A stretch of DNA of 64,000 bases from Escherichia coli (GCF_001677475.2 NZ_CP015229.1); one strand, 5' to 3'. Shown: positions 3,962 to 64,000, counted from the first letter of the stretch. Notes: generated from the sequence alone by a model not told the origin. Program-made: numbers and translations.

Positions 3962-4086
3962 GGACGGTACGACCCCAGAAGTTCAAACAAACAGCACAAG
4001 TCGTATCTTCGTTGCGCAGGTAACGTGGCTCAATCGGATTTGTCGGATTGAGCCAATAATAAACAACGAAATATTATTGTTATTTT

Positions 4087-4662
4087 TCAGTCCATTAAAT
4101 GTGACATTTGCAAATAGTTAAGCAATAACACCGTCTTACCGTCACGTATCTCGCCGGTTTTGATCATCTCCAGCGCCTGGCTGAACGGCAGCTCGAGCAC
4201 TTCAATATCTTCATCTTCGACACCGCCACCGGCGTTAGCGCGCTGATTGTCACTGTATTCGGCGATAAAAAAGTGGATTAGCTCAGTCACACCGCCTGGC
4301 GACATATACAGTTCAAATAATTTGCGCACTTCGCCCACTTCATAGCCCGTCTCTTCAATCGCTTCTTTGCGAATGCACACTTCCGGTTCGTCGTTATCCA
4401 GCAGCCCGGCGCAGGTTTCAATCAGCAGCCCGGTTTCATTGCCATTAACCCAGGTAGCGACACGGAACTGGCGAATCAGAACCACCGTCTTTTTCTTCGC
4501 GTTGTACAGGAGGATCGTCGCACCATTACCGCGATCGTAAACTTCACGTTTATGGCGGATAACTTCGCCATCTTTGCGCGTGAGATCGTAAGTAATGTTG
4601 TGCAGGGTGAAATAGTTATCGGAGAGAATTTTGTCTTTAATGAGGGTGATTTGTTGCGTCAT
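4087..4662 (-). CDS. nudK: GDP-mannose pyrophosphatase (Nudix hydrolase)
   Basis: ORF 4087..4689 trimmed to ATG at 4662 (191 aa); Nudix box GX5EX7REUXEEXGU visible ([13 protein letters not shown]). Confidence 0.9.
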
Positions 4663-4729
4663 ACCGACTCCACAGCGCGAAATGAACAATTATCTTACGC
4701 TGTGAAGTCGGGTTTGTCTGCGCAGGCTA

Positions 4730-6709
4730 TCAGTGAGATTTGACTGATTTTACCCCCAGCCAGTCAATAATCCCCTGTGCCGCATGACGCCCTTCTGCCA
4801 TTGCGGTAACCACCAGATCAGCACCACGCACGGCGTCGCCACCGGCGAAGATTTTCGGATTGGTGGTCTGGTAACGGTACTGGCTTTCCACATCCGCGAT
4901 GATGCGGCCCCATTTGTCTACCGTTACACCGTGCGACTCCAGCCACGGCATCCCGTGTGGATTGAAGCCAAACGCCATAATCACCGCATCGGCTGGCATG
5001 ACAAATTCACTGCCCTCAATCGGTACAGGTCGCCGACGCCCCTGGGCATCCGGCTCGCCAAGACGCGTGCGCAGGAAACGAATCCCGCAAACGTGACCTT
5101 GTTCATTCAGCTCAAGCGCCACCGGCTGGACGTTAAATTCGAAGTTGGCCCCCTCTTCGCGGGCGTTCTTCACCTCTTTCTTCGAGCCTGGCATGTTAGC
5201 TTCATCACGACGATAAGCGCAGGTGACGTTACTCGCGCCGTGGCGCAGCGCAGTACGCACACAGTCCATCGCGGTGTCGCCGCCGCCCAGTACCACGACG
5301 TTAAGTCCGGCGGTATTGATAAACGGCTCTTCCGGTAGCTCTTCGAGCCCCATCACCTGTTTAGTGTTGGCGATGAGGAACGGCAGCGCGTCATAAACGC
5401 CCGGCGCATCTTCATTGGGTAAACCCGCTTTCATGGAACGGTAAGTGCCTACGCCAACGAAGACCGCGTCGTATTGTTCCAAAAGCGAATCCAAAGAGAC
5501 ATCTTTACCCACTTCACAATTGAGTTCGAAGTGAATCCCCATCGCGCTGAAGATTTCCCGACGGCGTGCCAGCAGGGATTTATCCAGTTTGAAAGAAGGA
5601 ATGCCGAAAGTGAGCAAGCCACCGATTTCTGGATGGCGATCGTACACCGTCACCGCCACGCCATTGCGGGTCAGAACATCCGCACAGGCCAGCCCCGCCG
5701 GACCTGCACCGATAATCGCCACCCGCTTGTCCACTTTGGTGACATGGCTTAAGTCAGGACGCCAACCTTTCGCCAACGCCTGATCTGAAATGTAGCGTTC
5801 AATGTTGCCGATAGTTACTGCACCGTGCTCATCGCGAATAGTACAGGCACCTTCACACAAACGGTCTTGCGGACAAACGCGTCCGGTAATTTCCGGCAGG
5901 GTGTTGGTCTGGTGAGAAAGCTCGACGGCGGCGTCGATGTTTCCGGCTTTCACCAGTTCAATCCACTGCGGTATATGATTATGCAGCGGGCAGGTCCATT
6001 CACAAACGCTGTGCTCGCCGCATTTAAGGCAGCGCGAGGCTTCCCGTTGTGCCTGATCGGCACGGAATGGCAGATAAATTTCATCAAAACCGGTTTTGCG
6101 CGCTTCAATCGCCAGTTTATCCGGCTCGCCACGCGCGGGCGTTGCCTGCATTTGTTCGACTTTACTCATTACCGGCATTTCTTGTGCCGCGGTACTGGCA
6201 TGCCACGGTTGATGTTCCTGACGTGCGGTGCGCAAGCGGCGGGATTTCGCCATGCCGGAGAGTGCGGCGTCAGTGACCAGTTGCAGCGCGTCTGCCGGGC
6301 AATTCTCGACACAGGCAGGACCGTTTTCGCGCCCTGCACAAAGATCGCATTTATGCGCCGTGGCTTTTACTTTTCCTGCCGCGACGGGTGTTAGGACGAT
6401 TTGCATCGTACCAAACGGACAGGCCACCACGCAGGATTTACAGCCAATACACTTTTGCTGATTGACCTGAATGCTGTCATCAACGTGGCTGATTGCGCCA
6501 TTAGGGCAGCTACGGGCGCAGGGCGCATCTTCACAATGGTGACAGGTCACTGCACTACGTTGCTGCTGATGTTTGATAACCGTAATTCGGGGATGAAAAT
6601 GGTGTTGGCTCAGGACATGTTGCTCATCATTGTGAGCCATGACACAGGCGATTTCACAAGCATGACAACCCAGACATTGCTGACTGTTGGCCATAATAAA
6701 ACGATTCAT
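4730..6709 (-). CDS. aegA: Fe-S cluster plus FAD/NAD(P)-binding oxidoreductase AegA
   Basis: 659-aa ORF; N-terminal multiple CxxCxxCxxxCP ferredoxin motifs followed by a GltD-like pyridine-nucleotide-disulfide oxidoreductase domain (GAGPAG). Confidence 0.92.
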   Translation of the reverse strand: MNRFIMANSQQCLGCHACEIACVMAHNDEQHVLSQHHFHPRITVIKHQQQRSAVTCHHCEDAPCARSCPNGAISHVDDSIQVNQQKCIGCKSCVVACPFGTMQIVLTPVAAGKVKATAHKCDLCAGRENGPACVENCPADALQLVTDAALSGMAKSRRLRTARQEHQPWHASTAAQEMPVMSKVEQMQATPARGEPDKLAIEARKTGFDEIYLPFRADQAQREASRCLKCGEHSVCEWTCPLHNHIPQWIELVKAGNIDAAVELSHQTNTLPEITGRVCPQDRLCEGACTIRDEHGAVTIGNIERYISDQALAKGWRPDLSHVTKVDKRVAIIGAGPAGLACADVLTRNGVAVTVYDRHPEIGGLLTFGIPSFKLDKSLLARRREIFSAMGIHFELNCEVGKDVSLDSLLEQYDAVFVGVGTYRSMKAGLPNEDAPGVYDALPFLIANTKQVMGLEELPEEPFINTAGLNVVVLGGGDTAMDCVRTALRHGASNVTCAYRRDEANMPGSKKEVKNAREEGANFEFNVQPVALELNEQGHVCGIRFLRTRLGEPDAQGRRRPVPIEGSEFVMPADAVIMAFGFNPHGMPWLESHGVTVDKWGRIIADVESQYRYQTTNPKIFAGGDAVRGADLVVTAMAEGRHAAQGIIDWLGVKSVKSH

Positions 6710-6914
6710 AACGACCTTCTTTTTTGGTTGTAAAAACCTTATTCTTTATATGAGTGTTGTTATTACCCGACTTACAGGGGAATCGGCAATGTTCATGTGC
6801 CCAGAATAAGTAACTATTTCGCTATAAACTGTGGCAGATCAAATAATCCCATCACTGACTAAATTGTGTTTCAGCGAACTGGAACATTAATGATTTTTTG
6901 TGGAGAAGACGCGT

Positions 6915-8615
6915 GTGATTGTTAAACGACCCGTCTCGGCCAGTCTGGCCCGGGCCTTTTTTTACATTGTGCTGCTGTCGATTCTTTCCACGGGTATCGC
7001 TCTGCTAACTCTGGCGAGCAGTTTGCGCGATGCTGAGGCTATCAATATTGCCGGATCGCTGCGTATGCAGAGTTACCGCCTGGGCTACGACTTGCAAAGT
7101 GGCAGTCCACAACTCAATGCACATCGCCAGTTATTTCAGCAGGCACTGCATTCACCGGTATTAACCAACCTCAACGTCTGGTATGTGCCAGAAGCAGTAA
7201 AAACTCGCTATGCGCATCTGAATGCCAACTGGCTGGAGATGAATAATCGGCTCAGCAAGGGCGATTTGCCGTGGTATCAGGCCAATATTAATAATTATGT
7301 TAATCAGATAGACCTGTTCGTGCTGGCTTTACAGCACTACGCTGAACGCAAAATGCTGCTGGTGGTGGCGATTTCCCTGGCTGGCGGCATCGGTATTTTC
7401 ACGCTGGTCTTTTTTACTTTGCGCCGCATACGCCATCAGGTGGTTGCCCCGCTGAATCAGCTGGTTACCGCCAGTCAGCGTATTGAACACGGGCAGTTCG
7501 ACTCGCCGCCGCTGGATACCAGCCTGCCGAATGAGCTTGGCCTGCTTGCAAAAACCTTTAACCAGATGTCGAGCGAGCTGCATAAATTGTACCGTTCGCT
7601 GGAGGCGTCAGTAGAAGAAAAAACTCGCGATCTCCACGAGGCCAAGCGTCGTCTGGAGGTGTTGTATCAGTGTTCGCAGGCGCTGAACACCAGCCAGATT
7701 GATGTGCATTGTTTCCGCCATATTTTGCAGATTGTTCGCGACAATGAAGCGGCTGAATACCTGGAGTTAAATGTCGGTGAAAACTGGCGGATTAGCGAAG
7801 GGCAACCAAACCCGGAATTGCCGATGCAGATTTTACCGGTGACAATGCAAGAGACGGTTTACGGCGAACTGCACTGGCAAAATAGTCACGTTTCATCATC
7901 AGAACCGCTGCTTAACAGTGTTTCGTCGATGCTGGGACGCGGTTTGTACTTTAATCAGGCGCAGAAGCATTTTCAGCAGTTATTGTTGATGGAAGAACGT
8001 GCGACCATCGCCCGCGAATTGCACGACTCGCTGGCTCAGGTACTTTCTTACTTACGTATCCAGTTGACGTTACTGAAGCGTTCGATACCGGAAGATAATG
8101 CCACCGCACAAAGTATCATGGCCGATTTTTCCCAGGCGCTGAATGATGCTTATCGGCAGTTACGCGAGCTGTTAACTACTTTCCGCCTGACGCTGCAGCA
8201 GGCGGATCTCCCCTCCGCGTTGAGGGAAATGCTGGATACGTTACAAAATCAAACCAGCGCCAAACTGACCCTCGACTGCCGTCTGCCAACCCTGGCGCTG
8301 GATGCGCAAATGCAGGTGCATTTGTTGCAAATTATTCGCGAAGCGGTGCTGAATGCGATGAAGCACGCCAACGCCAGCGAAATCGCCGTTAGCTGCGTCA
8401 CCGCGCCGGATGGCAATCACACAGTCTATATTCGCGACAACGGGATTGGCATCGGTGAACCGAAAGAACCCGAAGGCCATTATGGTCTGAATATCATGCG
8501 CGAACGCGCGGAAAGATTGGGTGGGACGCTGACTTTTTCGCAACCTTCCGGCGGCGGCACGTTAGTGAGTATTAGCTTTCGCTCTGCGGAGGGTGAGGAA
8601 AGTCAGCTGATGTAA
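6915..8615 (+). CDS. narQ: nitrate/nitrite sensor histidine kinase NarQ
   Basis: ORF 6900..8615; likely GTG start at 6915 giving 566 aa (MIVKRPVSASLAR...); two TM segments, HAMP, histidine kinase domain. Confidence 0.9.
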   Translation: MIVKRPVSASLARAFFYIVLLSILSTGIALLTLASSLRDAEAINIAGSLRMQSYRLGYDLQSGSPQLNAHRQLFQQALHSPVLTNLNVWYVPEAVKTRYAHLNANWLEMNNRLSKGDLPWYQANINNYVNQIDLFVLALQHYAERKMLLVVAISLAGGIGIFTLVFFTLRRIRHQVVAPLNQLVTASQRIEHGQFDSPPLDTSLPNELGLLAKTFNQMSSELHKLYRSLEASVEEKTRDLHEAKRRLEVLYQCSQALNTSQIDVHCFRHILQIVRDNEAAEYLELNVGENWRISEGQPNPELPMQILPVTMQETVYGELHWQNSHVSSSEPLLNSVSSMLGRGLYFNQAQKHFQQLLLMEERATIARELHDSLAQVLSYLRIQLTLLKRSIPEDNATAQSIMADFSQALNDAYRQLRELLTTFRLTLQQADLPSALREMLDTLQNQTSAKLTLDCRLPTLALDAQMQVHLLQIIREAVLNAMKHANASEIAVSCVTAPDGNHTVYIRDNGIGIGEPKEPEGHYGLNIMRERAERLGGTLTFSQPSGGGTLVSISFRSAEGEESQLM

Positions 8616-8690
8616 TGCCTCTTATTGACCAAAGAATAGTGGCACTTAAGGTTCAGTATAAAAGGGCATGATAATTTACATTAACTCCTT

Positions 8691-8708
8691 TTTTTCTCCA
8701 CGATTGGC
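8691..8708 (+). promoter_or_regulatory. BaeR response-regulator binding box in acrD promoter
   Basis: tttttctccacgattggc ~70 bp upstream of the acrD ATG, matching the BaeR box consensus TTTTTCTCCATDATTGGC as I recall it. Confidence 0.6.
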
Positions 8709-8778
8709 TCGTACCTTGCCGCTACAGTGAAGCAAGTCAAGCCTACAACGATACGCAGAAACACGAGGTCCTCTTTTA

Positions 8779-11700
8779 ATGGCGAATTTCTTTATTGATC
8801 GCCCCATTTTTGCCTGGGTGCTGGCAATCCTGTTGTGTCTGACAGGTACCCTGGCGATTTTTTCATTGCCCGTTGAACAATACCCCGATCTCGCGCCACC
8901 GAATGTGCGAGTGACCGCTAACTATCCCGGCGCATCGGCCCAGACGCTGGAAAACACCGTGACCCAGGTTATCGAGCAAAATATGACCGGCCTCGATAAT
9001 CTGATGTATATGTCGTCTCAGAGCAGTGGTACCGGTCAGGCATCTGTCACTTTAAGTTTTAAAGCAGGCACCGATCCGGACGAAGCCGTGCAGCAAGTAC
9101 AAAACCAGCTGCAATCAGCCATGCGAAAGTTACCGCAGGCGGTGCAAAATCAGGGCGTGACGGTGCGTAAAACCGGCGATACCAACATTCTGACCATTGC
9201 CTTCGTCTCTACCGATGGTTCGATGGATAAACAGGATATTGCTGATTATGTTGCCAGTAATATTCAGGACCCGTTAAGCCGCGTGAATGGCGTCGGGGAT
9301 ATCGATGCCTATGGTTCGCAATATTCCATGCGTATCTGGCTGGACCCGGCGAAACTCAACAGTTTCCAGATGACGGCTAAAGATGTCACTGATGCCATTG
9401 AGTCACAGAACGCGCAGATTGCGGTTGGGCAACTTGGTGGTACACCTTCCGTCGATAAGCAGGCGCTCAACGCCACCATTAACGCCCAGTCACTGCTGCA
9501 AACACCAGAACAGTTCCGCGATATCACCTTGCGGGTGAATCAGGACGGCTCAGAGGTAAGGCTGGGCGATGTCGCCACCGTCGAAATGGGGGCGGAGAAA
9601 TACGATTATCTTAGCCGCTTCAATGGTAAACCAGCCTCCGGGCTGGGGGTAAAACTGGCCTCCGGCGCGAACGAAATGGCGACAGCGGAGCTGGTACTCA
9701 ATCGTCTCGACGAGCTGGCGCAGTATTTTCCACACGGACTGGAATACAAGGTGGCGTATGAAACCACCTCGTTTGTTAAAGCCTCCATTGAAGACGTGGT
9801 GAAAACGCTGCTGGAAGCTATCGCCCTGGTTTTCCTCGTTATGTATCTGTTCCTGCAAAACTTCCGCGCCACGCTGATACCCACTATCGCCGTGCCGGTG
9901 GTGTTGATGGGAACCTTCTCCGTACTATACGCCTTCGGTTACAGCGTCAACACATTAACCATGTTCGCGATGGTGCTGGCGATCGGTCTGCTGGTGGATG
10001 ATGCCATCGTGGTGGTGGAAAACGTCGAACGTATTATGAGTGAGGAAGGACTCACTCCTCGCGAAGCCACACGTAAATCGATGGGGCAGATCCAAGGGGC
10101 ACTAGTCGGGATTGCGATGGTTCTTTCGGCGGTATTTGTACCAATGGCCTTCTTCGGCGGCACCACCGGTGCCATCTATCGCCAGTTCTCTATTACCATT
10201 GTTGCGGCGATGGTGCTGTCTGTACTGGTAGCGATGATCCTCACTCCGGCTCTGTGTGCCACGCTACTTAAGCCACTGAAAAAAGGTGAGCATCACGGGC
10301 AAAAAGGCTTTTTTGCCTGGTTTAACCAGATGTTTAACCGCAACGCCGAACGCTACGAAAAAGGGGTGGCGAAAATTCTCCATCGTAGCCTGCGCTGGAT
10401 TGTGATTTATGTCCTGTTGCTTGGCGGCATGGTGTTCCTGTTCCTGCGTTTGCCGACGTCGTTCTTACCGCTGGAAGACCGGGGCATGTTTACTACCTCG
10501 GTACAATTGCCCAGCGGTTCAACCCAACAACAGACCCTGAAAGTCGTTGAGCAAATCGAGAAATATTACTTCACCCATGAAAAAGACAACATCATGTCGG
10601 TGTTTGCCACCGTTGGCTCTGGCCCTGGGGGCAACGGGCAAAACGTGGCGCGAATGTTTATCCGCCTGAAAGACTGGAGCGAACGCGACAGTAAGACCGG
10701 CACCTCATTTGCCATTATTGAACGTGCAACGAAGGCGTTTAACAAGATTAAAGAAGCTCGCGTTATCGCCAGCAGCCCGCCAGCAATTAGCGGTCTTGGC
10801 AGTTCTGCGGGTTTTGATATGGAGTTGCAGGACCACGCTGGAGCGGGTCACGATGCGCTGATGGCAGCACGTAACCAGTTGCTGGCGCTGGCGGCGGAAA
10901 ACCCGGAGCTAACCCGTGTGCGCCATAACGGCCTCGACGACAGTCCGCAGTTGCAGATTGATATCGACCAGCGTAAAGCTCAGGCGCTGGGCGTTGCTAT
11001 CGACGATATTAACGACACACTGCAAACCGCCTGGGGTTCGAGCTATGTGAATGACTTTATGGATCGCGGTCGCGTGAAGAAAGTCTATGTGCAGGCAGCT
11101 GCGCCGTATCGCATGCTGCCAGATGACATTAATCTCTGGTATGTCCGAAATAAAGATGGCGGCATGGTGCCCTTCTCTGCTTTCGCGACCTCACGCTGGG
11201 AGACAGGCTCACCGCGTCTGGAACGCTATAACGGTTATTCTGCGGTTGAGATTGTTGGGGAAGCCGCACCGGGGGTCAGTACCGGTACGGCGATGGATAT
11301 TATGGAATCGTTAGTGAAGCAGCTGCCAAACGGCTTTGGTCTGGAGTGGACGGCGATGTCGTATCAGGAGCGGCTTTCCGGCGCGCAGGCTCCGGCGCTG
11401 TACGCCATTTCCTTGCTGGTGGTATTCCTGTGTCTGGCGGCGCTGTATGAAAGCTGGTCGGTGCCGTTCTCGGTAATGCTGGTCGTGCCGCTGGGGGTTA
11501 TCGGCGCGCTGCTGGCAACCTGGATGCGCGGGCTGGAAAACGACGTTTACTTCCAGGTGGGCCTGTTAACGGTCATTGGTTTATCGGCGAAAAACGCCAT
11601 CCTGATCGTCGAGTTTGCTAACGAGATGAACCAAAAAGGCCACGACCTGTTTGAAGCGACGCTCCACGCCTGCCGTCAGCGTTTACGCCCGATTCTGATG

Positions 11701-22314: not shown

Positions 22315-22355
22315 ATATGAAATGCAATGTTTCATATCATTTTCAAGGAGCCGAC

Positions 22356-22973
22356 ATGAACCGCTTTGTGGTGGCCGAACCACTGTGGTGTACAGGATGT
22401 AATACCTGTCTCGCTGCCTGTTCGGACGTGCATAAAACGCAAGGTTTACAGCAACACCCGCGCCTGGCCCTGGCGAAGACGTCAACACTCACTGCCCCTG
22501 TCGTGTGTCATCACTGTGAGGAAGCCCCTTGCCTGCAGGTCTGCCCGGTCAATGCCATCTCCCAGAGGGATGATGCGATCCAACTCAACGAAAGCCTCTG
22601 TATTGGCTGCAAGCTTTGCGCCGTGGTCTGCCCATTTGGCGCAATCAGCGCTTCAGGAAGCCGTCCGGTGAATGCCCCTGCGCAATATGTTTTTCAGGCT
22701 GACGGCTCACTCAAAGACGGCGAAGAAAACGCGCCGACCCAACATGCTTTGCTGCGCTGGGAACCGGGTGTCCAGACCGTCGCGGTGAAATGCGACCTGT
22801 GTGATTTCTTGCCAGAAGGTCCGGCCTGCGTTCGCGCTTGCCCGAATCATGCGTTACGGCTGATCACCGACGATAGCCTGCAACGTCAGATGAAAGAAAA
22901 ACAGCGCCTTGCCGCAAGCTGGTTTGCCAATGGCGGGGAGGATCCCCTTTCCCTCACTCAGGAGCAACGCTAA
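22356..22973 (+). CDS. hyfA: hydrogenase-4 ferredoxin-type Fe-S subunit
   Basis: ORF 22317..22973 trimmed to ATG 22356 with AAGGAG RBS (205 aa); multiple CxxCxxCxxxCP motifs. Confidence 0.92.
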   Translation: MNRFVVAEPLWCTGCNTCLAACSDVHKTQGLQQHPRLALAKTSTLTAPVVCHHCEEAPCLQVCPVNAISQRDDAIQLNESLCIGCKLCAVVCPFGAISASGSRPVNAPAQYVFQADGSLKDGEENAPTQHALLRWEPGVQTVAVKCDLCDFLPEGPACVRACPNHALRLITDDSLQRQMKEKQRLAASWFANGGEDPLSLTQEQR

Positions 22974-56878: not shown

Positions 56879-59800
56879 TTACTGGAAGCAGGTAACCAGA
56901 CCCGGTTTATTCATTAGCGTGATACTACAATCCTGTGCTCCAGTGCCTTCGTCCATCCCACACTGTTGAGAGGACAAATAAGGAAAACTTGGTGAAGACG
57001 GCCATCCCAGTGAATTAAAAACAGTATGCAACAACTCTAATTCATTGTATGTCGGTGCATTTTCTATGCTGCCACACTGCCTTGCGATATCCCATTTACT
57101 GGCATCAATGATATGTGCAGAAGCCCAGTTTTCGTAGTTAATAAACGGTGAGGATACGGGATTAGCCCCGGACGGCAATTCCGTCGTTAACAACGGTCGA
57201 TGTAGCGATTTACCATTCACCACTACCGTGTCTGCCATATGTCCCCAAAAGTGCGCCGAGGAAACATTCGGGCTGGTTGGCACCGTAAAAATAGCGTCCA
57301 GCGTGTCTGTCGCGGAAGCGTAATTAGCCAGAGTAACCGTCAGTGGCGTTTTATAACCAGGGGTATTATCCTGGCGGAGCGTAAAACTTGCCGTCCCATC
57401 AGCGCCTGTCATGCCACTAATGGTATTACCGCTTTCACTCAGCGTAATAGCCGAACCAGATAACGGCTGAACGATGAGATCGTCCATCGCCACCACATCA
57501 CCATACAACGTTGCCCCAGCGTTACGCGGCGATGCCTCACCACGTTTCAAAGTAAACTCCACATTCGGCACCGTATTCCCGGCGCTGTCTTTCACCGTCA
57601 CGGTAACGGGCATGGCTTCGCCTTTTTTCACTTTCGCCGCCTGGCTGTCAGCATCAAACGCTGTTGAGGTCAGTGTGACGCTGGAAACCGTCGCGCGCGC
57701 AGACACCAGGCACGCCTGATAAGCGGTATTAACATTCAATGTCGTCAAGCCATTTTTCATATCGAGCGACTGATTTTTGCCATCTGTAGTCTTATCCTGC
57801 GCCCACCAGCCATAATAAACTGACCAGCCAGTTTCCGTCGTAAAGGTGTTATTGGGATAACGTTGATACAGTGACTTCATATCGCTGAGCAACGGTTGTC
57901 GTGCTTCTTCACAGGGGCTGAGGCTGGCATTTGCTTTGGTTGTTGCTGAGAAATAGGGCCAGTCCTCATTATTGTTACTGATTTTATTCACCCCGGAGGT
58001 CGATGGCAGCTCTTTCCACAATTTCGGTCGTTCAAAGACGGTTCCATTTGCCGCTGTCACCGTTTCTGGCATATGGCCCCAGTAGTTGGCATCCGGAGTG
58101 TCAGGGCTGGTGACCACGGTAAATATCAGGTCCAGGTTTGACGTGATCTGCGGATCTTGTGCAAGCGAGACCGTAAACGGCGTTGCCAGGCCAGTGGTGT
58201 TGTTTTGCGTAACATTGAACGTCACAGTGCCATCACTGCCGGTAAAGCCAAGCCATTTTGCCGTATCCTGAGCAAAGGAAATGCTGGCTGCTGTCGGTGT
58301 GACGACATTTACAATAAGATCATCTGCCGAAGTAGATGAGGGCTTATTCCCTGTACGGTTTTTCGACTGCGCCCGCTGAAGCGTCACGCTCTCACCACTC
58401 ACCAGGTTGCCATTTTGGTCTTTTACTGTCACGACTAACGGGATTGTCTCGCCCTTTTTCGCCGATGCCGAAGGTGTGCCACCGTTGCTGGCGGTTTTCG
58501 TCTCATCAAATGCGGCTGACGTGAGAGTCACGCTTGATGATAAAGCGTGAGGCTGCGTCAGACAAAGCATCAGAGCAGACGGATAGAGAGAAGATGAAGG
58601 TTGTCCTGTTTTCAGGTTAATGACCTGATAATACCAGGACGTGCCACTAAGAGTAAGCTCATAAGTCCACCAGTTTCCGGCTGTTGTCGGCACCCCCAGA
58701 TCTGTCGTTATCGCCCCGTTAGGGTGATCGTTATAAAGCCCCTGCAACTCGCTGAGGCGCGGTTGATATTCCAGTGGGCAATCTGCCGTCGCTTTTTGAG
58801 TGTTGGATATATATGACCATGTCTCATTATTACCATTTACCGAGCTCCCCGAAGTTGCTTCCGCTGCCAGTAATGGGCGCTTGAAGGTCACGCCTGCCGA
58901 GCTGGTAAACGTTTCCGGCATATGGCCCCAGTATTTCGCTTTTGGCGAATCCGGGCTGGTTATCACCGTGAAAATGACATCCAGCGTGGCGCTTTTTGAG
59001 GTGTCGCGCATCAATGTTGCAGTGAGCGGGGTTGCGAACCCATAACTGCCGTTTTGGCTGACCTCAAACGTAGCTTTACCATCGCTTCCTGTCTTCAGAA
59101 GAGCCTGCGTCCCATCCTCATACAAGATTGACGTTACCCCGGTAGGCTCCAAAGGCACGATGGTAAGATCATCTGCAGAGGCATTGTACGCAGCTTTAGC
59201 GCGATTCAGCGCAGTCCCACGTTTAAGGTTAAAGCTGGCACCTGGCAGTGGATTGCCTGCGCTATCTCGCACCGTAACCGTCATCGGGATAACCTCTCCC
59301 TTCTTCGCCGTTGCACTGGGCCTGCCATCATTGCTCGCCGTTTTCGTTGCATCCTCTGCCGTTGAGGTCATCTCAATAGAAGCCGCCTCTGGATGAGGGT
59401 TTACCAGGCACAGCATTAATGCCGAGGTGGTTGAAGACGCTCTTCCACTTGATCCATTTAACAGAGAAATATATTGATCGTACCACTTACCCGCATATGC
59501 CACCACGTCGTAAGCCCACCAGTAGCTATTCACTGGAATACCCAGATCGGTCTTTATCGCACGACTTGGATGTTCGTCGTACAATGCCTGGAGTTCGCTT
59601 AACAGCGGTTGATAATGTACATCGCACCCGCTTTTATCTGCATCCCCCTTTGTTGCCGATTTCAACAATCCCCATGTTTCATTGTCTTCTATGACTCCAG
59701 ATTCTGACGATGTTTCGCTCTTGAGTAGTGGACGCCTGAAGGCAATCCCGGAACGCGTAGTGAACGTTTCCGCCATATGCCCCCAGTAACTTGCCAGGGG

Positions 59801-62800
59801 AGTATCCGGGCTGGTTATCACAGTAAACATCACCGGTAATTTGTTGGATTCCAGGCTCGACTGATAGGCCTGAGCGTACACATTGGTTACCAGGCCTATA
59901 GAATCATCCTGCTTTACCGTAAACGTGGCCGTTCCATCCGCGCCCGTCACCGCATAAAGCAAGATTGATGAACTATCCATTCTTGCCGACGTCCCCGCGG
60001 CGTTGATTACGGTGATAGTTCTGTTCAACATCAGTGTATTCTGGCGATTTGTCGATCCTTCACGTTTGAGAATAAACGGAACATTTGGTACGACATTTCC
60101 CTGCGCATCTTTGGTCACCACGCGAATCACCGCGTCGTCACCTTTTTTCCGTTTTAGTGCGCTGAGGGTTTCGTCAACTTTGACAAATTGTGTCGAATCG
60201 TTCGCTTCGACAATAATTTGGCTGGTCATCGCCACTGGGGTAGCCCGACAGCTTAGCAGACCTATACTGCTTGGCATGATCTCCGATTCATAACCAGTCT
60301 TCAACGAAACCGCTTTAAAATTAAAGGCTTGAGTATAATAGGCGACTGCCGTACTGGAGATATAGGCACGTGATACAGGCCATCCCGTAACGTCATGTAT
60401 TGGCGTGTAACCTTCATCGGCATACAATGACTCAAGTTCATTGTCAGCCGGGACATATCCTGCACCGCAACCATTTACAGATGTGTTGTTCGACTGGTCC
60501 GGCGAGAACAGTGACCATTCCTCTCCATCTTCCTGAAAATAGTTTCGACTAGCTGTAACGGTAAGCTCATCTTGCAATAACGGTCTTTTATAAATAAGCC
60601 CGCCAGCACCGGTCATCGTTTCGGCCATATGCCCCCAGAATTTTGCTTTAGGGGTATCGGGGCTGGTTATCACCGTAAAGACCACCGGAAGCATTGATTT
60701 TACGTTATTATCTGTATCCAGCATGGCGGTCAGTTCGGTTTTTAAACCTGTGGTATTGTCCTGTTTCAGTGCAAGTGTTGTCGTACCATCTGCGCCGGTA
60801 ACGCCATAAATCAGTGCTGTTGTTGAGGAAAAATTACTCTGCGTATTACCCCAGGCATCCGTCACGATGAGCGCGCCTGCTGTCACCGTTGTAGACGCAT
60901 TTGCCCGATTGACGCTAAGGTTACGTTTAAGCGTAAACGCGGTATTTCCCACCGGGTTACCCTGCGCATCTTTAGTGGTCACGCGAACCACGACTTCTTC
61001 CCCTTTTTTCGCTTTGACAACATTATTCGTACTGTCAAATTTTGTAGGGTCCGCAGCCTCAAGAACGATTTGGCTTGCCTTAACGATCGGCGTCGTCTGG
61101 CAGGTAAGCAGTTCTTTTGTGGCCGATGGAATTATCGAACTGGTACCTGAACTGAGATTGACGGCCTTGAAGTCACGCTGTTCCAGACTACTGCTGCCTG
61201 TCGTGCTGGTAAGGTAACTTGAGGCGACGGGCCAGCCCTGAACCGTTTTCATCGCATTGCCGCGGTTAGCTTCATACAATGACTCCAGCCCAACCTGAGA
61301 GGGAACATATTCACTACCGCAACCATTAGAGGATGTGCTTGTCGCCTGAGTTTGGGTAAATTGCGCCCAGTCCTCATTCTCTTCTGCAATCGCTGTTCGA
61401 CCCGACGTACTGGATAACTCTTTCAACAATAATGGGCGCTTAAAGACCGTTCCATCCGCAGCCGTCACCGTTTCCGGCATATGTCCCCACATTTTCGCTT
61501 TATTGCTGTCCGGGCTGGTGACAACGGTAAAAATGGTATCGAGGGTCGCTTTTTTCGTTGTGTCTGAATAGAGCGCGGCGGTCAGCGACGTTTTCGTGCC
61601 ATGGGTATCCGGGCGGGTAATAGTGAGAATTTTAGTGCCATCGCTGCCGGCCATCGCGCTGTATGCTGCGGCGGTATCATTGAGCGAAGTTTCATCCGCC
61701 AGGCCACTATTGATCACAACCGGCGCAACCAGCGCATCACCGCTACCGGCAATGTGTTTTTCGTTTGATCGGGTATAACCATCGCCACGCTTCAGGGTAA
61801 AAGGCATATCACCCAATGGATTGCCCTGAGCATCTTTTACCGTCACCTTCACCTGTAGCGTTTCGCCTTTTTTCAGCTTCGCCGCATTTGCTGCCGCGTT
61901 CCACTGCGCCGGGTCCACCACTTCCAGCGTAATGCTGTTGGCAGGATTGTTAGCCGTCGTCAGGCAACTGACATAAACCGCCGTGCTACCGCCAACGGTC
62001 CGCGCGCCATCGTTGAGGGCTATGGTGTAGTAATGCGGCACCTGATCCGCGGGCGAACTGCTCCAGTAGGGCTGACGCTGCGTTGGCCAACCGTGTACCG
62101 TTTGAACGGCGTTACCGCTGTAAGCATCATAGAGCGCGTTAAGCTGGGAACGGCGTGGGAGCATATTGGCACCACAGCCACCTTTACTGGTGCTGGAAGT
62201 GTTGGCCTGGCTAACGCGCGACCACACTTCGTTATTTTCCGTTAATGTGCCGTCCGGGCTGGACACTTCCGCAGCCAGCCGGGATCGGGCAAAGGTTAAT
62301 GCATCGACGGTAATCGTCTCATCCATATGCCCCCACATCTGCGCGCCAACCGCATCCGGACTGGTGAGCGTAGTGAAAATCACATTGTAATTAACAGTAT
62401 TGGGAATATAGGAGTTTACAGGCGCAATATTCAGCGGCGTCGCTAAGCCCACACCTTGCGGTTGCTTAATTTCCACAGTAGCAAAACCCTGCGCATCCGT
62501 AGTACCTGCATAGACTAAAGACGGTTGCGATGTTCCGTAGAGCGTGCCATTCATCTCGATTGCGCCGCGGGTTGGATCATCGAAACCCGTGGTCTGCCCC
62601 TGACGATTTTTCCCCATATCTTTCGTGATGGTGAACGCGGTATACGGCACGGGCGCATTATTCAAGGCATTAAAGGTGCGTACCGTCATGGTAATCGTTT
62701 CACCCACTTTCGCCTGCGCTCTGCTGCTTGTGGAAACATCATGATCGGTGGTCGCAGCAATCTGGGCGACCATCTCATTGCCCGAACAAGAAAGGTAGTT

Positions 62801-64000
62801 TTGCTTAAAGCCGGAATAGGTGTCGATGTTGCCCGTGGCCAGGTTCACCGACGCATGCGACGTCTCTTCCACCGCACTAAGATACGCTTTTTGCAACGTT
62901 GGCCAGCCATATTCGGTGCCGATGACATTGGCTGGATGTGCGGCAAACAAACTGTGCAATGAGCTTTGGCTCGGAATATGACCTAAACCACACTCAGCCT
63001 GCATACTGCTATTCTGATCAAACAGCGCCCAGTCTTCGTTATTTTCCCGCACTGCTCCCAGTTCGTTGTCGGTTTCATCCGCCAACCGTGGGCGTTTAAA
63101 GATATTGTTCGCTTCAATAATGCCTAACATATGTCCCCACATCCGCGCTTTGTCGGAATCAGGGCTGGTGATCACCGTAAAAATAACGTCTTTCTCATCC
63201 GAAGCGGTAAAATCACTGCGCATTTTCGCGGTGATGTGAGTTTTCACCCCCACTCCGCCTGGCTGGGTCAGCGTCAGAGAGGCCTCTCCGTTAGCATCAG
63301 TGATCCCTTCATAGATATGGGCGTCAACTTTGCGAACGTTACTGCCGCCATCAATTTGTACCGGGTGCGTCTCCCACGCGGCGTCAGTTTGATTCTTACG
63401 GTTAACGCCGTCATCCAGATGCAGCGAAAAGTAGTAGTAAGCCAGCGGCTGATCGTTGTTCTTGCTATCGGTAATCGTCAGGCGTAAAGAAGCCTCTTCC
63501 CCCACCTTTACTTTCATCGCTTTTATCGTCGAATCATAACTGCCCGGCGTCAGTACCAGCTTCGGTTCAACATCGGGCGCTTCTTTATCGACACAGCTCA
63601 CAATAAACGTCGTATCGTCCGGTTTTTGCGCTTCGCTGCGGTTCGAAACATCCGCCGCATGGTGCTGGCCGCTCATCCCCGCCAGTGATGACCAGTAGTA
63701 GTTCCCCTGCATCGGCCAACCAGCCACATCCTGCACTGACGTTGGCACCACCGTCGCCAGCGCACCGAACTGACGCATTCCGGGCAAAATGTCGCAATGT
63801 TTATCCGCGCCGCTCCAGGTAAAGGTGGACCAGGTTTCATTGTGATCGTTAACCGTACCGTCTTCATTATCGACTTCCGCCGCCAGTTTTGGTCGACTAA
63901 AAGTGTAATCACGGGCCTTCAGCGTATCGGGCATATGACCCCACATTGTAGCCTGCGGGACATCCGGGCTGGTGAGGACGGTAAAGATCACTGCCGTTTC
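56879..64000 (-). CDS. giant tandem-repeat surface protein, RatA/RatB-like (bacterial Ig-like Big_1 domains alternating with a conserved Cys-containing module); C-terminal >2370 aa only, 5' end beyond window
   Basis: Single minus-strand ORF with no stop from the window edge to TAA at 56879; nine ~805-855 bp repeats each encoding FTV(I/V)TSPD..WGHM..NE.W..C..LY..GWP then KKGE..VTV.D..GN..F.LKR..G.DGT..F; codon usage like host; not present at this site in K-12. Confidence 0.85.
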   Translation of the reverse strand, partial: ETAVIFTVLTSPDVPQATMWGHMPDTLKARDYTFSRPKLAAEVDNEDGTVNDHNETWSTFTWSGADKHCDILPGMRQFGALATVVPTSVQDVAGWPMQGNYYWSSLAGMSGQHHAADVSNRSEAQKPDDTTFIVSCVDKEAPDVEPKLVLTPGSYDSTIKAMKVKVGEEASLRLTITDSKNNDQPLAYYYFSLHLDDGVNRKNQTDAAWETHPVQIDGGSNVRKVDAHIYEGITDANGEASLTLTQPGGVGVKTHITAKMRSDFTASDEKDVIFTVITSPDSDKARMWGHMLGIIEANNIFKRPRLADETDNELGAVRENNEDWALFDQNSSMQAECGLGHIPSQSSLHSLFAAHPANVIGTEYGWPTLQKAYLSAVEETSHASVNLATGNIDTYSGFKQNYLSCSGNEMVAQIAATTDHDVSTSSRAQAKVGETITMTVRTFNALNNAPVPYTAFTITKDMGKNRQGQTTGFDDPTRGAIEMNGTLYGTSQPSLVYAGTTDAQGFATVEIKQPQGVGLATPLNIAPVNSYIPNTVNYNVIFTTLTSPDAVGAQMWGHMDETITVDALTFARSRLAAEVSSPDGTLTENNEVWSRVSQANTSSTSKGGCGANMLPRRSQLNALYDAYSGNAVQTVHGWPTQRQPYWSSSPADQVPHYYTIALNDGARTVGGSTAVYVSCLTTANNPANSITLEVVDPAQWNAAANAAKLKKGETLQVKVTVKDAQGNPLGDMPFTLKRGDGYTRSNEKHIAGSGDALVAPVVINSGLADETSLNDTAAAYSAMAGSDGTKILTITRPDTHGTKTSLTAALYSDTTKKATLDTIFTVVTSPDSNKAKMWGHMPETVTAADGTVFKRPLLLKELSSTSGRTAIAEENEDWAQFTQTQATSTSSNGCGSEYVPSQVGLESLYEANRGNAMKTVQGWPVASSYLTSTTGSSSLEQRDFKAVNLSSGTSSIIPSATKELLTCQTTPIVKASQIVLEAADPTKFDSTNNVVKAKKGEEVVVRVTTKDAQGNPVGNTAFTLKRNLSVNRANASTTVTAGALIVTDAWGNTQSNFSSTTALIYGVTGADGTTTLALKQDNTTGLKTELTAMLDTDNNVKSMLPVVFTVITSPDTPKAKFWGHMAETMTGAGGLIYKRPLLQDELTVTASRNYFQEDGEEWSLFSPDQSNNTSVNGCGAGYVPADNELESLYADEGYTPIHDVTGWPVSRAYISSTAVAYYTQAFNFKAVSLKTGYESEIMPSSIGLLSCRATPVAMTSQIIVEANDSTQFVKVDETLSALKRKKGDDAVIRVVTKDAQGNVVPNVPFILKREGSTNRQNTLMLNRTITVINAAGTSARMDSSSILLYAVTGADGTATFTVKQDDSIGLVTNVYAQAYQSSLESNKLPVMFTVITSPDTPLASYWGHMAETFTTRSGIAFRRPLLKSETSSESGVIEDNETWGLLKSATKGDADKSGCDVHYQPLLSELQALYDEHPSRAIKTDLGIPVNSYWWAYDVVAYAGKWYDQYISLLNGSSGRASSTTSALMLCLVNPHPEAASIEMTSTAEDATKTASNDGRPSATAKKGEVIPMTVTVRDSAGNPLPGASFNLKRGTALNRAKAAYNASADDLTIVPLEPTGVTSILYEDGTQALLKTGSDGKATFEVSQNGSYGFATPLTATLMRDTSKSATLDVIFTVITSPDSPKAKYWGHMPETFTSSAGVTFKRPLLAAEATSGSSVNGNNETWSYISNTQKATADCPLEYQPRLSELQGLYNDHPNGAITTDLGVPTTAGNWWTYELTLSGTSWYYQVINLKTGQPSSSLYPSALMLCLTQPHALSSSVTLTSAAFDETKTASNGGTPSASAKKGETIPLVVTVKDQNGNLVSGESVTLQRAQSKNRTGNKPSSTSADDLIVNVVTPTAASISFAQDTAKWLGFTGSDGTVTFNVTQNNTTGLATPFTVSLAQDPQITSNLDLIFTVVTSPDTPDANYWGHMPETVTAANGTVFERPKLWKELPSTSGVNKISNNNEDWPYFSATTKANASLSPCEEARQPLLSDMKSLYQRYPNNTFTTETGWSVYYGWWAQDKTTDGKNQSLDMKNGLTTLNVNTAYQACLVSARATVSSVTLTSTAFDADSQAAKVKKGEAMPVTVTVKDSAGNTVPNVEFTLKRGEASPRNAGATLYGDVVAMDDLIVQPLSGSAITLSESGNTISGMTGADGTASFTLRQDNTPGYKTPLTVTLANYASATDTLDAIFTVPTSPNVSSAHFWGHMADTVVVNGKSLHRPLLTTELPSGANPVSSPFINYENWASAHIIDASKWDIARQCGSIENAPTYNELELLHTVFNSLGWPSSPSFPYLSSQQCGMDEGTGAQDCSITLMNKPGLVTCFQ

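Follow-up and report, generated by a model that had tools for sequence, protein, structure and literature searches.

The review by Vanoni (PMC8097209, section 6.4) describes AegA as the least understood of the GltD-like proteins, and it leaves open whether this protein carries out a reduction dependent on NAD(P)H or a bifurcation like that of Nfn. In 2018, Pinske (PMC6004506) grouped AegA as a paralogue with HydN, YsaA, HycB, HyfA, YgfS, and YgfT. The two-hybrid assays reported there gave strong AegA signals with itself, HycB, HycF, HydN, HyfA, and YsaA (2956 MU for the combination of AegA and HyfA), and no signal was detected for AegA with FdhF. When aegA was deleted, the dye-linked activity of FDH-H, the hydrogenase activity, and the production of H2 were all unchanged (PMC6004506).

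The genetic study of Iwadate and Kato in 2019, as it is cited in PMC8097209, bioRxiv 10.1101/2022.07.24.501321, and PMC12507026, assigned AegA to a degradation of uric acid that depends on formate and FDH-H, and YgfT is reported to overlap functionally with AegA in this formate-dependent degradation (PMC8097209, bioRxiv 10.1101/2022.07.24.501321). Liu et al. (bioRxiv 10.1101/2022.07.24.501321) found that the induction by urate is modest for aegA and strong for ygfT and ygfK, and these authors, who worked with rich medium, considered aegA to be probably uninvolved under those conditions. In 2025, it was reported that 2,8-dioxopurine is formed from urate by the reductive action of XdhD-YgfM and is in turn reduced by YgfK, NADH being the in vitro reductant for purified XdhD-YgfM and YgfK (PMC12507026). 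AegA is mentioned in that paper only as an earlier-proposed, uncharacterised oxidoreductase, and we found no biochemical characterisation of purified AegA in the literature searched. It should be mentioned that aegA adjoins narQ and that the member of the urate locus is ygfT, an observation to be set against statements in the Introduction of PMC12507026 and in PMC7843439. Medicine has an interest in the anaerobic degradation of urate in the gut bacteria, because of hyperuricaemia and gout.

The aegA gene and the domains of its product

The window, that is, the whole 64-kb stretch of Escherichia coli DNA analysed here, contains an orthologue of E. coli aegA. According to the ORF list and the translation, the minus strand at 4730-6709 is an ORF of 659 aa with an ATG start and the stop included, and the sequence AGAAGG, which resembles a Shine-Dalgarno sequence, lies directly 5' of the ATG. 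The gene and the parts of its product are as follows.

4730-6709, minus strand: aegA coding sequence, 659 aa plus stop (ORF call, NCBIfam NF009408, RefSeq annotation of the homologous E. coli locus)
6221-6709, minus strand: ferredoxin domain of the HydN/HycB type, aa 1-163 (Cys motifs, NF007658, PDB matches)
6098-6220, minus strand: linker, aa 164-204, outside all Pfam domains (the alignment with GltD starts at aa ~192-208)
5765-6097, minus strand: Fer4_20 (DPD domain II), aa 205-315 (PF14691, E 9e-38)
4790-5725, minus strand: FAD and NAD(P)H Rossmann folds, aa 329-640 (Pyr_redox_2, PF07992, E 7.5e-30)

The product scores 1398.6 bits with the AegA equivalog model of NCBIfam, NF009408 (also listed as PRK12769), for which the cutoff is 1003, and the alignment covers 1-659 of 659 positions. 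The model of the paralogue YgfT, NF009451, aligns with aa 1-650 of AegA and stays under its cutoff of 1154 with 873.5 bits. An initial annotation, made from the sequence, had already given the name AegA to this 659-aa gene, and the ORF, the equivalog match, and the RefSeq annotation of the locus all bear it out. In RefSeq, the product is called “formate-dependent uric acid utilization protein AegA”, after Iwadate and Kato 2019. The gene aegA belongs to the named core genes of E. coli, a curated model exists for its family, and its physiological role has been published.

In comparison with WP_001078843.1 (E. coli AegA), 658 of the 659 residues are identical, the one exception being I564, which is V in the reference, and the two genes differ at 24 nucleotides (~1.2%), 23 of these differences being synonymous and one non-synonymous. 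Since a single amino-acid difference accompanies 24 nucleotide differences, aegA is intact and under purifying selection. The possibility of a pseudogene or of a chance ORF is ruled out by the full-length equivalog match and by the 23:1 synonymous ratio. The plus-strand antisense ORFs at 4784-5338, 5825-6394, and 6401-6733 are unsupported, and we took them to arise merely from the coding frame on the other strand. AegA of E. coli K-12 has the same length of 659 aa, the same full-length equivalog match, and the same neighbours, nudK, narQ, and acrD; the differences from it are of no functional note, I564V being conservative and the nucleotide divergence mostly synonymous. Of 5426 complete E. 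coli genomes, 5425 have the locus nudK-aegA-narQ-acrD, with identities of no more than 98.7% (megablast with window positions 4000-9000), and an index of public assemblies lists an identical 659-aa protein in 531 blocks. This copy of aegA is ordinary, and the window adds nothing to the question, raised in the literature, of what AegA does biochemically.

The initial annotation had described the product as the fusion of a four-cluster ferredoxin domain with a GltD/DPD-like FAD/NAD(P) oxidoreductase. The matches in Pfam, NCBIfam, and the PDB agree on such a fusion, and the domain search, which had been named beforehand as the test that could refute it, upheld the combination of Fe-S and flavin domains. 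The N-terminus of AegA has 16 Cys residues arranged in four CxxCx(2-8)Cx3C motifs at aa 12-22, 56-68, 87-97, and 121-137 (in this order, CLGCHACEIAC, CHHCEDAPCARSC, CIGCKSCVVAC, and CDLCAGRENGPACVENC), and the 4Fe-4S dicluster families of Pfam span aa ~5-145. The HydN model NF007658 matches aa 1-163 (E 4e-52) with 176 bits against a whole-protein equivalog cutoff of 260, and such a sub-cutoff score is expected when the domain is fused. In the PDB search, the same domain matched HycB from the structure of formate hydrogenlyase (7z0s_B, E 2e-34) and also HycB3/HycB4 of the hydrogen-dependent CO2 reductase (HDCR, 7qv7); HydN and HycB are the proteins that it resembles most. Four [4Fe-4S] clusters are predicted in this N-terminal domain. 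HydN, HycB, HyfA, and YsaA have the four Cys motifs and the two-hybrid network in common with AegA, but each of them exists as a separate protein of about 180-200 aa, whereas AegA is a fusion.

In the Fer4_20 region there are seven Cys residues, at positions 227, 230, 236, 240, 279, 285, and 289, and this Cys pattern, together with Glu304 (in “IGNIERY”), aligns with the GltS beta subunit and with NfnB/NfnI-L. In the published structures of the GltD-like module, seven Cys residues and one Glu or Gln ligate two [4Fe-4S] clusters. Two [4Fe-4S] clusters are predicted for the Fer4_20 domain of AegA as well, with Glu304 as a putative ligand. Because four clusters in the N-terminal domain are joined by two in the GltD-like module, the whole protein should have about six [4Fe-4S] clusters, not four. 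The four clusters of the initial annotation are thus appropriate for the N-terminus, with its 16 Cys residues, but not as the total for the protein.

The FAD motif GAGPAG occurs at aa 334 and the second Rossmann motif, GGGDTA, at aa 475, with CAYRRDEANMPGS after it, and CAYRR is found at aa 497-501, with YRR at 499-501. The stretch from GGGDTA through CAYRRDEANMPGS aligns with the NADPH-dependent GltS beta subunit and with the NADP(H)-binding NfnB/NfnI-L, and from this motif the nucleotide site of AegA looks to be of the NADPH type. About 460 residues of AegA (aa 192-651) align end to end with the small chain of NADPH-GltS (6s6s_G, E 2.4e-120), and the module aligns somewhat less well with NfnI-L (5jca_L), with NfnB (4ylf_B), and with residues 43-503 of dihydropyrimidine dehydrogenase. 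The PDB scores are 406 bits for the GltS beta subunit versus 293-317 bits for NfnB, and the NCBIfam subfamily is gltD_gamma_fam. Among the best 25 of 30 Pfam matches there are only Fer4-type, Fer4_20, and Rossmann/flavin families and no extra catalytic domain; the FMN/pyrimidine (DHO_dh) domain of DPD, a C-terminal dicluster, and a GltB-like substrate domain are all absent from these 25. The ferredoxin domain, the linker, and the GltD-like module together take up the full 659 residues. An identity with full-length DPD was also considered and was rejected, AegA ending at the GltD-like module and DPD being aligned over residues 43-503 only.

How does AegA compare with the systems in which this module has been described? 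GltD of Azospirillum brasilense (6s6s_G / 2vdc_G) shares with it the seven-Cys region of two clusters, the conserved Glu residue, and the folds for FAD and for NADPH, the latter with its YRR. However, GltD is without the N-terminal four-cluster domain and acts bound to the GltB alpha subunit, whereas no GltB-like partner is located near aegA. NfnB/NfnI-L and the Stn-type fusions (5jca_L, 4ylf_B, 8oh5_C, and 9bov_A) have a homologous GltD-like module, with scores under that of GltD. Its fusion partner in 8oh5_C and 9bov_A is a domain of the formate-dehydrogenase-like or molybdopterin type, and these two structures show that the module is often wired to partners of this kind. AegA has neither a molybdopterin domain nor an NfnA partner. 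YgfT (UacF) has the same three-part architecture as AegA; its gene is inside the urate cluster and is strongly induced by urate, whereas aegA is unlinked to the cluster and is modestly induced.

The proposed direction of electron flow through AegA

To our knowledge, the GltD-like module serves in every characterised relative as the port that connects a larger redox machine with NAD(P)H. Because AegA is without a catalytic domain of its own and its GltD-like relatives act as such a port, AegA is most likely an electron-transfer module. We lean, with modest confidence, toward a module that links the FDH-H/ferredoxin-like network to NADP(H) and so supplies the reductive urate pathway. The initial annotation had stated that the substrate is not obvious, which is correct for the sequence taken alone; a role in the degradation of uric acid that depends on formate and FDH-H has been in print since 2019 and is present in the RefSeq name.

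In the scheme that we favour, the N-terminal domain of AegA would dock into the FDH-H/ferredoxin-like network (HycB, HydN, YsaA, and HyfA), the electrons from the oxidation of formate would travel along the six clusters of AegA to the FAD, and the FAD would reduce NADP+. The reducing power would then feed the reductive uric acid pathway of XdhD-YgfM and YgfK. The expression of aegA would be anaerobic and sensitive to nitrate, from a promoter region shared with narQ. This scheme would account for the fact that urate degradation needs formate, FDH-H, and either AegA or YgfT. The sequence does not set the direction of flow, and the direction from formate to NADP+ is favoured because of the reported dependence on formate and FDH-H. 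Given that no two-hybrid signal with FdhF was detected and that the FDH-H activity was unchanged when aegA was deleted, any link between AegA and FDH-H would be an indirect one, and HydN or YsaA might be the bridge between FdhF and AegA. These results go against the scheme, and so do two other observations: XdhD and YgfK were assayed with NADH (PMC12507026), as opposed to the NADPH-type motif of AegA, and the induction of aegA by urate is modest (bioRxiv 10.1101/2022.07.24.501321).

A more specific form of this idea, which we put forward tentatively and with some doubt, is that AegA may be the NADP+-reducing arm of a soluble complex, undescribed so far, in which FdhF is combined with HydN or YsaA and with AegA. 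If this were true, E. coli would have a formate:NADP+ oxidoreductase, FDH-H would have a second electron outlet beside formate hydrogenlyase, and the urate pathway would have its reductant.

It is also conceivable that AegA would be a direct donor, which would pass the electrons of formate through its Fe-S chain into the Fe-S/flavin centres of XdhD-YgfM or YgfK, or into urate, with no free NAD(P)H in between. An alternative attributed to Iwadate and Kato in bioRxiv 10.1101/2022.07.24.501321 is transfer “directly to uric acid”, and the same preprint places the paralogue ygfT inside the urate cluster. In addition, donors of the ferredoxin type are assumed for the clostridial forms of this pathway (PMC12507026), and AegA bound promiscuously to Fe-S proteins in the two-hybrid assays (PMC6004506). 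On the other hand, NADH alone suffices in vitro for XdhD-YgfM and YgfK of E. coli (PMC12507026). The protein itself also argues against this reading: in the alignment, its pyridine-nucleotide site is complete, with no decay seen, and the best 25 of 30 Pfam matches include no recognisable purine- or substrate-binding domain. With aegA unlinked to the urate cluster as well, we regard direct donation as unlikely.

The electrons could also flow in the canonical direction of GltD, with NADPH oxidised at the FAD and single electrons passed through the clusters to a partner, either a hydrogenase module (HycB/HyfA) or some reductase. AegA would then be an anaerobic NADPH valve, and the urate phenotype would be indirect. 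The homologous module of GltS and DPD does take in the electrons of NAD(P)H (PMC8097209), the two-hybrid signals of AegA with HyfA, HycB, and HycF are strong (PMC6004506), and the hyf operon is 15.6 kb away in the same window. However, neither the production of H2 nor the total hydrogenase activity was affected by the deletion of aegA (PMC6004506). This direction also leaves the reported dependence on formate and FDH-H unexplained. The evolution of H2 driven by NADPH is thermodynamically unfavourable, which counts further against the idea, and we consider it decidedly improbable.

An Nfn-type enzyme, that is, one with flavin-based electron bifurcation or confurcation, was raised as a possibility in PMC8097209 and would agree with the homology of the C-terminal module to NfnB/NfnI-L (E about 1e-93 to 1e-86), but it is very improbable here. 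The 17 kb of annotated sequence at the locus, with nudK and narQ next to aegA, contain no NfnA-like gene (FAD and [2Fe-2S]), and both the scores and the gltD_gamma_fam assignment bring AegA nearer to the non-bifurcating GltS beta subunit than to NfnB.

The region shared with narQ

The neighbours of aegA and the region between aegA and narQ are as follows.

4087-4662, minus strand: nudK, GDP-mannose pyrophosphatase, the downstream neighbour on the same strand (RefSeq; NUDIX Pfam match)
6710-6914, no strand: divergent intergenic region of aegA and narQ, 205 bp (offset to the annotated locus)
6824-6847, plus strand: published predicted FNR site, ATAAACTGTGGCAGATCAAATAAT (exact match to the listing in PMC1802558)
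6915-8615, plus strand: narQ, nitrate/nitrite sensor kinase (RefSeq homologous locus; PilJ, HAMP, HisKA_3, and HATPase_c Pfam matches on an identical neighbour)

As had been stated in the initial annotation, aegA is divergent from narQ, and 205 bp lie between the two genes. The region aegA/narQ is an FNR target in the ChIP-chip study of Grainger et al. (PMC1802558), with a listed predicted site. This site, at 6824-6847, has one perfect ATCAA half-site, and its other half is degenerate. A scan for the FNR consensus TTGAT-N4-ATCAA with two or fewer mismatches gave no match in the intergenic region, and it missed the published site because of the degenerate half-site; over the whole window, the scan gave 37 matches, which is not above chance. 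One NarL heptamer (TACYYMT) occurs in the intergenic region, also not above chance (P about 0.24), and since the heptamer count is at the chance level, control by nitrate is not demonstrable here from the sequence. The regulation of aegA by anaerobiosis and nitrate rests on the literature, namely on the study of Cavicchioli et al. (1996), the title of which, as cited in PMC6004506, names the control of aegA by both. The anaerobic electron-transfer role suggested in the initial annotation is in agreement with this title, with the FNR ChIP target (PMC1802558), and with the two-hybrid network (PMC6004506).

The scan of the intergenic region for sigma-70 promoters gave none for aegA, and the terminator scan gave nothing on the minus strand past aegA. 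In comparison with strain PS2Canimalfeces12, the 205 bp of the intergenic region show 0 differences, and the 8 kb spanning the locus are 98.4% identical; the lack of differences is only mildly notable, because about three would be expected by chance. Together with the FNR ChIP site, it is mildly suggestive of constraint on the regulatory region shared by aegA and narQ.

The nudK side and the rest of the window

Between the stop of aegA (4730-4732) and the start of nudK (4662), a strong RNA hairpin with a main stem of 15 bp is located at 4664-4711 on the minus strand. The structure that contains this stem has a folding energy of -32 kcal/mol (81 nt folded), with a z-score of -4.5, and 0 of 200 shuffled sequences were as stable. 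The 3' arm holds the GGAG Shine-Dalgarno sequence of nudK and stops 2 nt ahead of the nudK ATG. The hairpin is not a canonical intrinsic terminator, because no U-tract follows it; it could stabilise the 3' end of the aegA transcript, or it could occlude the translation of nudK on read-through transcripts. In Pectobacterium versatile, aegA is reported to share its operon with a gene for a [4Fe-4S] ferredoxin, located downstream of it, whereas nudK is the downstream gene here.

The gene for a paralogue of HycB and HydN, hyfA, is located at 22317-22973 on the plus strand, ~15.6 kb from aegA, and is followed by the hyf (hydrogenase-4) operon with hyfR. The proximity of aegA and hyfA is probably coincidental, even though two members of one ferredoxin-like network share the window. 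Rfam and tRNA scans of the whole 64-kb window gave nothing. Near the end of the window, next to xseA, there is an ORF of 2370 aa at 56879-63991 on the minus strand, where SCU-105 has an “adhesion domain-containing protein”. The part of the window at 39001-64000 is covered to at least 80% in only 1361 of 5426 complete genomes, and for this reason it looks like a variable island. The best matches among the complete genomes (n=5426) are 97.8-98.7% identical over stretches of 25 kb, with 97.8% for the 39-64 kb stretch, and a draft contig, ABBDHP010000006.1 (GCA_019138595.1), has 100% identity over the 7971 bp tested. The window is accordingly a piece of natural chromosome from the Escherichia group. 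The Escherichia lineage of the window appears to be without a representative among the complete genomes searched.
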